NCBI GenBank assembly: GCA_050486505.1 | Contig: JBJHDK010000005.1 | Location: forward strand, 1-20,942 | DNA from: Fibrobacteria bacterium | GTDB taxonomy: Bacteria; Fibrobacterota; Fibrobacteria; UBA11236 | Direction: 5' to 3' | Length of the DNA: 20,942 bases | Shown: positions 3,001 to 6,000 of the stretch, in pieces | How positions within the stretch are numbered: the first letter of the stretch is position 1 | How the letters are laid out: every line of letters begins with the position of its first letter | Position numbers: made by a program

Positions 3001-6000
3001 GCGCTTGAGGTCGGTGACGTGGTGGCCCAGCGCCTGCAGGAGGCGGCGGATCTCGCGCTTTTTGCCTTCGGTGAGGGTCAGCCGGTAGCCGGTCTTGGTG
3101 GTTTCGACTTCCTTGCAGCGGAAGACCACGTCGGGTTCGACTTCGACGCCACCGAGCAAATCCTGGATGTCTTCGTCGGTGAGGGGGTAGCGCGTGCGCA
3201 CGGCGTAGATGCGCGGGATCGCGTTGCGGGGGTGGGTCAGGTGCAGGGTGAAGTCGCCGTCGCTGGTGAAGAACAGGAGGCCTCGGCTGTCCATGTCCAA
3301 ACGGCCCACGTAGTGCAGGTTCTGGTATTCGGGCGGGAGGAGGTCGTACACGGTGGGGCGGCCGTGGGTGTCGCCGCGCGAGCAGACGTAGCCGGCGGGT
3401 TTGTTGAAGAGGATGTAGGCGTGTTCGTCCGCGGGTTTGACGGGCTTGCCGTCCATCGCGACGACGTCGTCATCGCCCACGGCGGTGCCGAGTTCGGCGG
3501 GTTCGCCGTTGACGGTGATGCGGCCGAAGCGGATGAGGTCTTCGACCGAGCGGCGGCTGCCGAGGCCGCAGAGTGCGAGGTAACGGTTGAGTCTCATATT
3601 AACTAGAACGGTAAAACTTAATATGGCGCGAGTAGATAAGGTGGAGATGGTGGGACTCGAACCCACAACCATCGCTTCCTAAACTATTCCCGAGAAGAGC
3701 ATAGGAAGGCGACTGCTCTGCCATTAAGAGCTACACCCCCAAAATTTTGAGCAAGACCCGTCACAACTGGAATTGAACCAGTAACCACCGTTCTCTGTGA
3801 TGGCCGATTTAACCAAAATCGGGAAATGCGATTTTGGGTCTCACTGAGAAAATATAGAATATGCGGTGGATGAAATAAAGCAAAAAGTTACAAAAATAAC
3901 ATTGTGTACTAAGATTAAGAGTATCTAGGATATTCGTAGTGTCGAAACAGTCTCTAATATCTGAATGCCCCGCCTTCCCGCAGTGGCAAGTGTTTTGATC
4001 CGATTCTCTTGCCGCGTAGCCTCATCATCGCACAGTCATTGTTTTTTGGCACGGAAGAAATTCTTGAGTTCTGTGGATTTGAGTTAATCGGCTTTCAGTT
4101 CTCCCCGAAGACGCGGATCCCTTCCTTCTTCGCGGCCCGCACCAGCTCCTTGTCGAAGCACACGAAGGTGACGTCGGGTTGAACCTTTCTGAGCTGGAGC
4201 AGGCAGAACAGGTGCCCGGCATCCGCGGCCCGCAGACGATGCTTGTCCAGCAGCTTTCGGACCATCGCATGATGACCTGCCTGAGGTTCAATGCCGAGAA
4301 AGTCGAAGAATGAGAGGTAGTGATTGAGCAGCTTCAAATCTTCCGGTGCCGCAGTTCTGCGCATCACGGCTCCATGAGCCTCCATTTCCATCCAGTTCCA
4401 TGAGTAGTTCTTGTCCGTCGCGATGTGAGCCTTGCGGGCTGCGGATGTATGCGGCTCCTGAAAGATCAGCGCCAGGATGGCGCTTGCATCCCAATACTGG
4501 ACTGAATTGTGCGAAGGTTTGGACATGATCGGAGTCTCAATAATCCCGCTCGTTCCGAATCATTTCCATGGTGGAAATATCCGTTCTGCCATCGGGAGCG
4601 ACTCTGGGAGAAACCTTTGCCGAGCGGAACGGCTTGGGTTCTGTTTCGCGCAGATACAGCTTAACGTTCTTTTTCGCCGCTTCCTCAAGCAGGCGTTCCC
4701 GTTCGATTTTCCACGAAGGGATTTTGGATTTCTTCGTCACGGGCGCGAGGGTGGCGACGGGTTTGTTGCGCAGCATCACGGTGATGGTTTCTCCCTGTTC
4801 GACGAGCCGCAGGTAGTGGCTGAGGCGGTTTTTGAGTTCGGCGGTTTTGACCTTCATAGTTGGCCAAGTTAGTCAAAAAACATGGCCAACTTGGAGAGGG
4901 CCTTTCCGCTGTCGGTGCAGGGAGATCAAACGTCGTGCCACGTTAAAAGCGGGGAAATTTCCGGAAAAACGCGGGCAAGGGTGAAAAACGGGGAAATGAA
5001 GCCGGGAAGATGCACGTCCGGATCCGGGCGCAACAGCGGGGCGAAATGCTACGGCTTTTCCGGAGATTGCGGATCGGCGGGAGGCGCGGGCGCGTCGGCT
5101 TCGGAAGTACCGGCGGTCACATCCGGAAGTCTCGAGGCGAACTCCTTCATCAACCGGTCGGGCTGGGTGAGGAATTCACGCGCGATGCCAACGGCGACAT
5201 CCACCGAGTCTTGCCCGTGGCGTTCGACCCAGCCGGCGACGAGCGCGGACGTGTCCGTTCCCAAAGGCTTGCCGTCGCGCAGTTCCGCGGCCATGGTCAG
5301 CGCGAGGCGCATGCCGAGGCCGCTGCGCAGTCGCTCGATGTTCTCGGTGCGGCCGATCAGGTCGTCGAGCCGCTTCAAGGTTTCGTCCAGGTGCGCGGCG
5401 TCGAGGTGGGCCATGCGTTGTTGATCCGTCACGGGTGGGCCCCCTGTGAGGGCGACCCGGCGGGTCGCCCGTACATGTGTGCCGGGTCGATCGGGCCCCC
5501 CAGGGTGAAATCAACCTTGGCCAGCGCCTCGCCGCGCAGGTCTTCGGGGTCGACGCCGAGGACGAGGGCGAAGATGGCGTAGGGGCTCATGGTCGATCCG
5601 TTCTCGGCGGCGCGGAGGCGGAGGTTCAGATGGCCGTCTTCGATCCAGGATTCGATGACCTCATCCTGGGCCTGAATGGTTTTGTCGCGGTGCATGCCCG
5701 CGGGAACGAGTCCATTCCGCAGACGCCCCAAACCTTGCTCGAGCGCGGAGAGGCCCCCCGAATAACTCTTGTCGAGACGGTACAATACGCTTTCGGTGCG
5801 CGGGACTTTCGGGAGCGCAGTCGGTTCGAGCGCGATGACGTCCATGCCTTCGGGAAGGCATTCGGAGAGACGGGCGCATGTGGTGTCCGCATCATCCAGT
5901 TTCCGCGAGAACTCGACGATGAGCATTTCACGGCGCGATTCGAGACCGAGCGGGAGGGCGCCGGTGTTCTTGATCTGCGGGCGCGGGTTGTATCCCGACG

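Follow-up and report, generated by a model that had tools for sequence, protein, structure and literature searches.

Introduction

Group I introns are catalytic RNAs of hundreds of bases, and tRNA genes are among the places where they are found. They sit in the anticodon loop, and no other kind of intron is described as established for bacterial tRNA genes (bioRxiv 10.1101/2020.01.27.920355). The introns of archaeal and eukaryal pre-tRNAs are reported to be cut at a bulge-helix-bulge (BHB) motif (PMC4090602). Short inserts in the anticodon region have been described as 'enigmatic introns' in tRNA genes of the Lak megaphages; their route of removal is given there as unknown, and bacterial tRNA finders overlook the genes that bear them (Devoto et al. 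2019, PMC6784885). The YrlA-type bacterial Y RNAs are described as tRNA-shaped, non-decoding molecules that keep the D and T arms, one member of which is cut by RNase P and given CCA (Chen et al. 2014, PMC4201824). The TLD-only tmRNA of mycobacteriophage DS6A is described as combining an alanine-type acceptor and T arm with the absence of both an anticodon and a tag reading frame, and it resides on a mobile element; a molecule similar to it inhibits tmRNA, perhaps via titration of SmpB (Hudson, Lau and Williams 2014, PMC4131195). Mobile elements are also reported to leave tRNA gene fragments or pseudo-tRNAs behind (PMC9897764).

Here we analyse a 99-nt tRNA-like gene located in a 20,942-nt stretch of Fibrobacteria DNA (the window), which a preliminary description had read as an island-borne tRNA-Gly(UCC) gene split by a small intervening sequence. 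The main outcome is a correction of that intron reading. We tentatively propose instead a non-decoding, alanine-type tRNA mimic of foreign origin.

Table 1. Coordinates of the tRNA-like gene, of the insertion that carries it and of neighbouring features in the window.
Feature	Position	Strand	Basis or remark
Whole insertion, 1451 nt, between two core genes	3598..5048		Synteny, composition
99-nt tRNA-like gene	3642..3740	minus	Rfam tRNA, fold, ARAGORN -i, identity elements
Extended 'anticodon' arm	3671..3713	minus	MFE and centroid structures
26 nt removed by the earlier reading (cut 36/37)	3678..3703	minus	73-nt cloverleaf after removal
Second tRNA-like fold, directly upstream of the 99-nt gene	3750..3845	minus	Fold of 3741-3850
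AT-rich spacer, 38-44% GC, from the PIN gene to the two tRNA-like folds	3851..4094		Composition profile
PIN-domain (VapC-like) toxin gene, 143 aa	4095..4526	minus	Pfam PIN, homologues
Phd/YefM-family antitoxin gene, 106 aa	4537..4857	minus	Pfam, NCBIfam
13-nt inverted repeat immediately before the antitoxin start codon	4858..4891		92% complementary, arms 8 nt apart
Core genes	small gene 5049-5414, radical-SAM gene 5429-8065		Between the insertion and the RM/GmrSD/OLD genes

Results

Body and identity marks of the 99-nt gene

The 99-nt gene is read on the minus strand, from the 5' end at 3740 to the discriminator base at 3642. Its Rfam tRNA match spans the whole model at 45.0 bits (E 7.7e-07), the lowest score of the 45 tRNA hits in the genome, and default ARAGORN misses it, the sole call being a tRNA-Pro at 682-758. 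The full-length molecule folds at -39.5 kcal/mol (z -3.24), a value equalled by none of 200 shuffles. All four stems are fully paired, including a D stem of 4-5 bp in the predicted fold; the T arm (GUGGG-UUCGAGU-CCCAC) and its loop are canonical, and the variable loop is the 4-nt GGUU. The 99-nt gene is a real tRNA-shaped, tRNA-derived gene. It departs from convention in the D arm, where position 14 is U and tRNAs have A, and position 20 is C and E. coli tRNA-Ala has G. The trailer after the discriminator is CCU and not CCA, which is encoded by 36 of the 45 tRNA hits in the genome. A second assembly of the only DNA run listed as containing the stretch spans 3300-4300 with 0 differences, although it probably derives from the same reads and is not independent.

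The acceptor stem, GGGGGUG/CAUCUCC with G3.U70 and A73, was compared with the bacterial alanine and glycine determinants collected in Table 1 of PMC9976931. Four of the five alanine determinants are present (G3.U70, A73, G2-C71 and G4-C69), and positions 1-4 and 69-73 are those of the host tRNA-Ala(CGC). The fifth determinant, G20, is lacking from the D loop UUAAUGGCA, in which a C follows G18 G19; since the host tRNA-Ala(CGC) itself carries U at D-loop position 20, the G20 rule is not general. For the 3' half, the top partial BLAST matches come from phage tRNA-Ala genes, with up to 93.8% identity over 32 nt. Bacterial tRNA-Gly requires U73, C2-G71 and G3-C70 (PMC9976931 Table 1), all of which occur in the host tRNA-Gly(UCC), located at C56:13200-13272, on the contig that the preliminary description had named. 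The 99-nt gene has A73, G2-C71 and G3.U70 at these positions, and G1-C72 is the only one of four glycine acceptor determinants that fits. Judged by sequence, the acceptor marks are of the alanine type rather than the glycine type. The host tRNA set includes Gly(UCC), Gly(GCC), Gly(CCC) and three tRNA-Ala genes, and host decoding does not need the anticodon of the 99-nt gene.

The hairpin arm and the 26-nt insert

The extended arm starts with the 5-bp anticodon stem GUCGC/GCGAU and continues through a C bulge, 6 bp, a U/U mismatch, 3 bp, a C/U mismatch and 3 bp to a UCGG loop, the would-be anticodon being base-paired in both the MFE and the centroid structures. In its 3' part, the insert reads as the reverse complement of the loop, and the 7-nt inverted repeat noted earlier, CUUCCUA with UAGGAAG, is indeed present. 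Alone, the arm folds at -17.7 kcal/mol versus -10.95 +/- 2.54 when the 26 nt are shuffled, with 15 of 1000 shuffles reaching the same value. In the modelled structure the insert pairs with the anticodon loop and lengthens the stem, and the anticodon is thereby predicted to be sealed.

Removal of the 26 nt yields a 73-nt cloverleaf of -26.4 kcal/mol. This value, the length, the bit score, the silence of default ARAGORN and the energy of the full-length fold all agree with those reported before. The proposed cut between positions 36 and 37 does produce the cloverleaf but is not a unique site, because the 26-nt window can be moved 1-2 bases earlier or 1 later with equal outcome. The four adjacent registers leave the loops CUUGGAA, CUUCGAA, CUUCCAA and CUUCCUA, and the anticodon call is therefore arbitrary, with UGG, UCG or UCC as its outcome; ARAGORN with the -i option chooses a register that gives 'tRNA-Arg(tcg)', unlike the 36/37 cut. 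As encoded, C35 and C36 are paired within the helix, and a 7-nt loop would contain them only if the insert were excised, and then in two of the four registers. The glycine assignment, which had been based on the anticodon UCC, is contradicted by the acceptor marks and finds no support in the arbitrary register.

No bulge-helix-bulge motif occurs in the arm, a nearly unbroken helix which contains one 1-nt bulge, two 1x1 mismatches and no 3-nt bulges. Profiles of the endonuclease EndA (PF01974) and of RtcB (PF01139), the ligase family covered by the search, gave 0 matches each in the 99.03%-complete genome; as controls, the two profiles matched in 4 and 10 reference genomes. For a group I intron, the insert has only 26 nt, and Rfam at the gathering threshold returned nothing but two tRNA hits in the window. 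The earlier reading stands in two points: the gene derives from a tRNA and has an insert in the anticodon loop that forms a hairpin, and this insert is not of the group I kind. Splicing does not stand, given that the BHB motif, EndA and RtcB are all missing. The 99-nt gene is most likely not spliced, and not a new kind of bacterial intron.

The insertion and its neighbours

The GC content is 38-57% over 3600-4900 versus 62-71% in the flanks. Nine loci of the same genus, spread over 8 genomes, were compared. Their radical-SAM, small and pseudouridine synthase genes are adjacent, as is the phosphofructokinase gene where the locus reaches that far, and the interval occupied by 1451 nt in the window measures roughly 0-190 nt. 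Because this low-GC stretch is missing from all nine loci, the insertion, and with it the 99-nt gene, is foreign in origin. It has replaced the native upstream region of the pseudouridine synthase gene, whose mRNA starts 45 nt downstream of the element, and no terminator-like site was found between the two. In the loci of 19 relatives no tRNA lies next to the pseudouridine synthase gene at this position; the single tRNA hit, in a class-level relative (L171), lies past that gene, about 1.3 kb from its far end. The element therefore did not arise by alteration of a resident tRNA. The insertion shows only short direct repeats of chance size at its ends or in its flanks, and none of the 29 ORFs tested in the window has an integrase or transposase domain. 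A search of the genome for repeats of 3600-3900 gave nothing beyond T-arm-size matches, and no host tRNA end is duplicated. An integration-site tRNA fragment was considered and rejected on the lack of a host tRNA 3' duplicate and of an integrase domain. A 14-nt motif is repeated at 3815-3828, 4942-4958 and 4985-4998.

The insertion carries a toxin-antitoxin cassette. Pfam PIN matches the toxin at 18.4 bits (E 0.0035), below the cut-off; precomputed PF01850 annotations exist for 9 of its 19 homologues, the closest of which share 57-62% identity, and among 20 sequences the acidic PIN residues E49, D102 and D125 do not vary and D13 hardly does. The antitoxin matches Pfam PhdYeFM_antitox at 28 bits and NCBIfam TIGR01552 at 25.2 bits, above the cut-off. 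The inverted repeat before its start codon is likely the operator of the Phd/PIN cassette. The 99-nt gene had been placed at the edge of a defence island and regarded as island-borne. It lies in its own 1.45-kb insertion and travels with the Phd/PIN cassette, not with the restriction island, and core genes intervene before the RM, GmrSD and OLD genes, which run from 8491 onward; the original placement was thus imprecise.

The second tRNA-like fold is closed by a 10-bp outer stem, inside which lie a 5-bp inner stem and three hairpins; there is no free acceptor end, and the last hairpin is a T arm (ACUGG-UUCAAUU-CCAGU). The region folds at -34.2 kcal/mol (z -3.03; 1 of 200 shuffles equal), has no copy elsewhere in the genome and gave no Rfam tRNA hit at E<=10. 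A weak -10-like TATATT, read by eye, lies 6-7 nt before the outer stem, and a promoter scan returned no site at its threshold. ARAGORN also called a 'tRNA-Leu(taa)' at 3757-4168 with a 319-nt intron, an artefact that arises from the T arm of this fold.

Search for relatives and partners

BLAST with the element produced only T-arm-size or 3'-half matches in its own genome, 40 relatives and 295 phylum genomes, and likewise in the phage and plasmid collections. A pattern of the shell matched 1 of 296 phylum genomes, the match being the window itself, and exact patterns for the 3' end, for the 5' end plus anticodon stem and for the T arm of the second fold each gave 0 viral loci. The gene is a single copy, as claimed before, with none elsewhere in the genome, in the 40 relatives or in the 295 other phylum genomes. 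No relative with the hairpin accompanies this single copy.

ARAGORN in default and -i modes found no tRNA-like gene beside the PIN homologues at the 54 metagenome loci listed, of which 41 have at least 500 nt downstream and which do not include the closest homologues; its calls there were an ordinary tRNA-Lys at a distance of about 2 kb and two implausible tRNAs with 526-nt introns, both upstream of the PIN gene. Nor was a T-loop motif present within 800 nt downstream of PIN at these listed loci, or a tRNA-like gene beside PIN at the 3 homologues examined in family genomes. The link between the 99-nt gene and the PIN toxin is not conserved. The open literature, with subscription journals outside the scope, yielded neither bacterial alanine-type tRNA genes with a hairpin-sealed anticodon nor a tRNA-like gene tied to vapBC.

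Alanine-type shells at other loci

A pattern requiring an alanine acceptor and 44-70 nt between the D and T arms identified 23 viral loci, at several of which a long hairpin replaces the anticodon arm; among the 20 of them searched with Rfam, 18 score as full-length tRNA and 8 have more tRNA genes within 300 nt. A similar pattern gave 16 loci in species-representative genomes, 4 of them beside Ro60/TROVE genes. One locus holds two tandem copies, each preceded by TGTTATAAT, and one of these agrees with the window in its acceptor, GGGGGUG, and in the odd D loop, UUAA..GGCA, a likeness that, as for all recurring loci, is partly by construction, since the pattern fixes the common features. Long-insert tRNA genes with non-alanine acceptors also exist; among the 80 loci listed, 66 are well paired and 0 have G3.U70. 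On pattern evidence, alanine-type tRNA shells with a replaced anticodon arm appear to recur in phage tRNA arrays and beside Ro60 genes. Alignment of the insert with the pattern hits of most similar size showed no conservation, and we therefore claim no family membership with any pattern hit.

Discussion

In the reading that we propose, to which we give a probability of roughly 0.4, the element was acquired horizontally and is a tRNA mimic that does not decode and has a shell of the alanine-tRNA type. We infer its expression, processing, charging and any function as follows. Transcription would start in the AT-rich spacer and include the upstream tRNA-like fold, or the RNA would arise by read-through of the Phd/PIN operon; cleavage by RNase P at G1, trimming of the 3' end and addition of CCA would follow. 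The product would be an L-shaped 99-nt RNA in which a rod of about 17 bp takes the place of the anticodon arm, and the hairpin-closed anticodon loop would leave it unable to read codons. AlaRS recognises the acceptor stem and not the anticodon, so that the RNA could probably be charged with alanine. If active, it may serve as a decoy or competitor for tRNA-binding proteins, with tRNA-cutting nucleases such as the neighbouring PIN toxin, or AlaRS and EF-Tu, as possible targets. VapC4, a member of the PIN family, is reported to cut tRNA-Cys (PMC13096801). The decoy role is testable because the element adjoins a PIN toxin, from a family with known tRNA-cutting members, though the pairing is not conserved. 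A fuller version, in which an expressed, alanine-chargeable, anticodon-less mimic travels with the PIN (VapC-like) cassette, belongs to a wide unnamed class of tRNA scaffolds with a swapped anticodon arm and acts as decoy or modulator of tRNA-directed nucleases or of the alanine charging and delivery machinery, seems rather unlikely to us; were that class real, its members would be the Ro60-bound Y RNAs, members of phage tRNA arrays and this hairpin form.

Several observations stand against the mimic. The element is a singleton in 296 phylum genomes with no conserved partner gene; the promoter scan was empty; the element has U14, C20, no encoded CCA and the lowest tRNA score of the genome; the recurring loci resemble it partly by construction; and the second, more degenerate tRNA-like fold directly beside it in AT-rich foreign DNA looks like decaying mobile-element cargo. 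Most of these points would fit an inert relic, which we regard as nearly as likely as the mimic: a phage or mobile-element tRNA gene, or a piece of an array, would have arrived with the cassette and been killed by a palindromic 26-nt insertion or an inverted duplication within its anticodon loop, with no role and decay ahead. A template-switch error would give just the reverse complementarity to the loop that the 3' part of the insert displays. However, neither the stems nor the T loop show any defect, so that any decay must be very young; the continuous helix of the insert beats 985 of 1000 shuffles, and the same design is found elsewhere in genes that look maintained.

The remaining explanations fare worse. 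A signal at the RNA or DNA level is improbable: the tRNA shape would be a site for RNase P or 3'-end cutting that parts the cassette transcript from the pseudouridine synthase mRNA, or the palindrome would be a recombination site left by the delivering element. The lack of a terminator-like site before the downstream gene and the replacement of its native upstream region are consistent with a processing signal, but a cut site would need neither alanine marks nor a sealed anticodon, and a recombination site is at odds with the absence of integrase and transposase domains, of direct repeats beyond chance size and of a duplicated host tRNA end. Least probable is a true intervening sequence, a widened form of the earlier reading, whose 26 nt an unidentified bacterial activity would remove to give a decoding tRNA with the anticodon UCC, UCG or UGG. 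It is favoured by the perfect cloverleaf after removal, by the one register that leaves CUUCCAA, the loop of the host tRNA-Gly(UCC), and by the pairing of the insert with the anticodon, as in eukaryotic pre-tRNA introns, which pair with the anticodon. The RNase P cleavage described for the tRNA-like module of M. smegmatis YrlA (PMC4201824) lends the processing signal a precedent, as the short unexplained 'introns' described in Lak megaphage tRNA genes (PMC6784885) do for the intervening sequence. Against the latter, the genome offers no BHB motif, EndA or RtcB, 26 nt is far below self-splicing length, the register is undefined and the glycine identity marks are absent. Given the alanine acceptor, the spliced tRNA would decode glycine, arginine or proline codons as alanine, and such a mistranslating product would be harmful.

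An intron removed without protein or by an unknown enzyme would be a first for a bacterial tRNA, but the evidence speaks against it. In bacteria and phages there are tRNA-shaped genes that retain alanine charging marks but would be unable to decode, and standard tRNA finders miss them or give them arbitrary anticodons. Where a 'tRNA with intron' is met in bacterial annotation, its identity marks deserve a check before a name is given.

Comparison with known systems

With its 26 nt, and with no Rfam intron family in the window, the insert differs from group I introns. It resembles archaeal and eukaryal introns, as these are described, in adjoining the anticodon and pairing with it, but lacks the two 3-nt bulges around a 4-bp helix, and its cut is not fixed at 37/38. 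The Lak megaphage genes are described as phage-borne and are typed with ordinary anticodons, whereas the gene of the window is chromosomal, has no known relative and bears identity marks that disagree with its possible anticodons. With the tRNA fragments reported for mobile elements it shares a non-canonical tRNA call, foreign DNA and a position beside mobile cargo, but the element is full length with both acceptor strands, and no host tRNA end is duplicated.

Rfam matches to tmRNA, permuted tmRNA, YrlA and CRISPR-repeat models were all rejected as far below the gathering scores. The tmRNA model reaches 30.4 bits against a gathering score of 47 and matches the two ends only, and the host has a normal tmRNA on C23. 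The alanine-type acceptor and T arm of the DS6A TLD-only tmRNA are also found in our element, which differs in keeping a full D stem and in having a long arm where SmpB would sit. As to the YrlA RNAs, the genome has 0 matches to TROVE/Ro60 (PF05731), the second fold scores 15.2 bits against a gathering score of 69, and the motifs GGGCCG ... GGUUAUC of the Ro60-adjacent RNAs are absent from the hairpin of the window. The likeness to YrlA lies in the overall design: the four Ro60-adjacent loci (L234, L237, L244 and L246) have the same combination of an alanine-type shell and a replaced anticodon arm.

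Fold of the tRNA-like gene

The minus strand carries the 99-nt tRNA-like element, which reads 5' to 3' from 3740 to 3642 and matches the Rfam tRNA model end to end (45.0 bits, E 7.7e-07), with 29 nt of the anticodon loop scored as insertion. It ranks last by score among the genome's 45 Rfam tRNA hits and is followed directly at its 3' end by CCU; 36 of the 45 hits encode CCA. Default ARAGORN misses it, the sole call there being a tRNA-Pro(GGG) at 682-758. The RNA folds at -39.5 kcal/mol (z -3.24; 0 of 200 shuffles equal) into a 7-bp acceptor stem, a D arm, an extended anticodon stem, a 4-nt variable loop and a canonical T arm. 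The anticodon stem consists of 5 bp, a C bulge and 6 + 3 + 3 further pairs capped by a UCGG loop, and this arm alone reaches -17.7 kcal/mol versus -10.95 +/- 2.54 with shuffled inserts (15 of 1000 shuffles equal); the insert pairs onto the anticodon loop above chance level. Every checkable figure of the preliminary description, including the Rfam score, the folds and the effect of removing 26 nt, was reproduced. The stretch 3300-4300 shows no differences in a second assembly of the single public DNA run containing it, an assembly that probably derives from the same reads as the first.

A foreign cassette between conserved genes

The gene map of the window was drawn from Pfam and NCBIfam.

Features of the window around the tRNA-like element
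Feature	Position	Strand
ParE	1-432	-
tRNA-Pro	682-758	-
Phosphofructokinase	1133-2794	+
S4/RluB-like pseudouridine synthase	2911-3597	-
Element	3642-3740	-
Second tRNA-like fold	3741-3850	-
AT-rich spacer	3851-4094	
PIN-domain protein	4095-4526	-
Phd/YefM antitoxin	4537-4857	-
Small conserved gene	5049-5414	-
Radical-SAM gene	5429-8065	-
EcoRI-type methylase, GmrSD-HNH, OLD nuclease, DUF2130, others	8491 onward	+

Nine same-genus loci (8 genomes) have the radical-SAM gene, the small gene and the synthase side by side, joined by the phosphofructokinase where the locus extends there, and the gap between small gene and synthase is roughly 0-190 nt, versus 1451 nt in the window. No Rfam tRNA lies at the element's position in the loci of 19 relatives, whose sole tRNA hit (L171, a class-level relative) is found beyond the synthase gene, about 1.3 kb from its far end. 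The GC content is 38-57% over 3600-4900 versus 62-71% in the flanks, and the element therefore arrived as part of a small foreign cassette; core genes stand between it and the restriction island. The small conserved gene, which encodes 121 aa and separates the radical-SAM gene from the insertion, is less prominent in the ORF list than an opposite-strand shadow ORF (4882-5424, +) that could mislead gene callers.

The 110 nt directly upstream of the element fold at -34.2 kcal/mol (z -3.03) into a 10-bp outer stem, a 5-bp inner stem and three hairpins, the last of which is a T arm (ACUGG-UUCAAUU-CCAGU) stacked on the inner stem. The predicted structure amounts to a cloverleaf with its acceptor end sealed by the outer stem. 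Neither Rfam tRNA nor default ARAGORN calls it, and no copy was found elsewhere in the genome; it may belong to the element's transcript or be a second decayed tRNA. The motif AAAA(N)CGGGGAAAT occurs three times, once within this fold (3815-3828) and twice toward the insertion's right-hand end (4942-4958 and 4985-4998), possibly by chance.

Anticodon register and identity marks

Removal of 26 nt in four adjacent registers gives a 73-nt cloverleaf of the same -26.4 kcal/mol each time, leaving the loops CUUGGAA, CUUCGAA, CUUCCAA and CUUCCUA. ARAGORN with intron search takes the second, giving tRNA-Arg(UCG), and the preliminary description took the third, giving tRNA-Gly(UCC). Because the four fold equally well, the anticodon assignment is arbitrary and the cut site is not fixed by the sequence. 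In the textbook account, AlaRS ignores the anticodon.

The acceptor stem GGGGGUG/CAUCUCC pairs as G1-C72, G2-C71, G3.U70, G4-C69, G5.U68, U6-A67 and G7-C66, with A73 as discriminator. Table 1 of PMC9976931 gives the bacterial identity elements as A73, G2-C71, G3.U70, G4-C69 and G20 for alanine and as U73, G1-C72, C2-G71, G3-C70, C35 and C36 for glycine; by that table the element has four of the five alanine marks and one of the four glycine acceptor marks. Its identity marks are thus those of alanine and not of glycine. The host tRNA-Ala(CGC) is identical to it at positions 1-4 and 69-73, the host tRNA-Gly(UCC) (C56:13200-13272) has the complete glycine set, and the 3' half of the element finds its top partial database matches in phage tRNA-Ala genes. 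An identity as tRNA-Gly(UCC) was rejected on these alanine-type acceptor marks and on the undefined register, UCC being one choice among several of equal energy.

Possible roles of the element

The proposal that the element is an intron-bearing tRNA-Gly is mostly unsupported, and a spliced decoding tRNA of any kind is very improbable. The arm has one 1-nt bulge and two 1x1 mismatches but no bulge-helix-bulge motif; neither the splicing endonuclease family PF01974 nor RtcB (PF01139) has a match in the genome (99.03% complete, 125 contigs), the control genomes being positive for both. At 26 nt the insert is too short for a group I intron, and Rfam detects none. Since the host already has Gly(UCC), Gly(GCC), Gly(CCC) and three tRNA-Ala genes, there is no decoding gap to fill. 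Two further ARAGORN calls outside the 45 Rfam hits, a 101-nt 'tRNA-Ala(tgc)' (C1:36887-36987) and a 79-nt 'tRNA-Pro(cgg)' (C9:35732-35810), are probably false positives.

We tentatively favor a horizontally acquired, non-decoding, alanine-type tRNA mimic (probability about 0.42). No relative with its hairpin was found in the host genome, related genomes, genomes of the phylum, phages, plasmids or viral loci, and the element is an orphan; that it is a young inert relic is a serious possibility. A processing or DNA-level signal seems unlikely. For a tRNA mimic, a decoy role is attractive because PIN/VapC toxins cut tRNAs, as VapC4 does tRNA-Cys (PMC13096801). Assignment of the neighboring protein to the PIN family is based on a weak Pfam match (18.4 bits), on PF01850 in 9 of 19 homologues, and on the invariant E49, D102 and D125 and nearly invariant D13; homologues occur in 5 of 296 genomes of the phylum, a tally that takes in one (G276) flagged as unpublished. 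Neither a tRNA-like gene nor a T-loop motif adjoins the PIN gene in three family genomes or in the 54 metagenome homologues listed (41 with at least 500 nt downstream), a survey that leaves out the closest homologues (57-62% identity). The pairing of element and PIN gene is not conserved.

Enlarged anticodon arms in other tRNA shells

Viral contigs were scanned for an alanine-type GGGG...CUCCA acceptor, a GCUC/GAGC D stem and a GGUUCRANUCC T loop with 44-70 nt between D and T arms (about 26 nt in ordinary tRNA), and 23 loci match. Of 20 run on Rfam, 18 score as full-length tRNAs (33.9-57.2 bits) and 8 have more tRNA genes within 300 nt; in several, a long hairpin replaces the anticodon arm, and ARAGORN -i assigns unrelated anticodons. 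With the acceptor constraint dropped, a control pattern matches at least 121 stretches, and among the 80 loci listed there are 66 inserts in well-paired acceptors, none with G3.U70, so long inserts are no peculiarity of alanine shells. Viral contigs L034-L113 hold many tRNA genes of phages and giant viruses that have 18-44 extra nt between D and T arms, in all acceptor types, with recurrent ARAGORN -i calls of tRNA-Tyr(GUA) and tRNA-Trp(CCA) with 21-29-nt inserts.

A slightly narrower pattern, run on one genome per species, gave 16 loci: four ordinary tRNA-Ala genes beside a duplicated piece, four members of one conserved family adjoining Ro60/TROVE genes inside Y-RNA-like module arrays, one adjoining RtcB, one in a crAss-like prophage region, two with normal anticodon loops and a variable arm of about 40 nt, and four small orphans. 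The Ro60 arrays (L234, L237, L244 and L246, about 2000-3100 of each locus) adjoin Ro60/TROVE and vWA genes, and L234, L244 and L246 have an M48 peptidase gene close by as well; the modules of the arrays have the motifs GGGCCG ... GGUUAUC and UUGCC in common and include 106-126-nt alanine-acceptor tRNA-like genes that score as tRNA (36.9-48.1 bits), not YrlA. The RtcB neighbor is a 99-nt alanine-type tRNA-like gene of Chryseobacterium (L235:2501-2599), in a setting that resembles rsr-yrlA-rtcB loci. The two Solirubrobacterales genes (L241:2501-2614 and L247:2501-2616; 57.3 and 55.3 bits) have a G3.U70 alanine-type acceptor and normal 7-nt anticodon loops (UUU and GUC), and are possibly mis-incorporating or non-canonical tRNAs. 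At an orphan locus of a Cyclobacteriaceae MAG, tandem 93- and 98-nt alanine-type tRNA-like genes (L248:2501-2593 and L248:2738-2835, -) adjoin an IS1595 transposase; the enlarged loop of both opens with YUGAAU, TGTTATAAT precedes each copy, and the same TGTTATAATAGAAATAAGAAGC box lies upstream of both. One copy agrees with the element in its acceptor, GGGGGUG, and in the unusual D loop UUAA..GGCA, likenesses of a kind partly built into the search pattern, and no insert of the pattern loci aligns with that of the element. These loci are evidence that an alanine shell with an enlarged anticodon region is used in nature; they are not taken as evidence that the element belongs to any such family.

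Comparison with known systems

The literature search returned no account of a hairpin-sealed tRNA of this kind in bacteria, nor of any tRNA-like gene linked to vapBC. Among tRNA mimics already described, the YrlA Y RNAs are associated with Ro60 (PMC4201824), whereas the element's genome lacks a TROVE gene. The 'TLD-only' tmRNA of mycobacteriophage DS6A is, in its account in PMC4131195, an alanine top half that carries no tag; the element, in contrast, retains a D stem, and the Rfam tmRNA model matches its two ends only, at 30.4 bits, below the gathering score. Short unexplained introns occur in tRNA genes of Lak megaphages, which have ordinary identities in the description given in PMC6784885, unlike the element.
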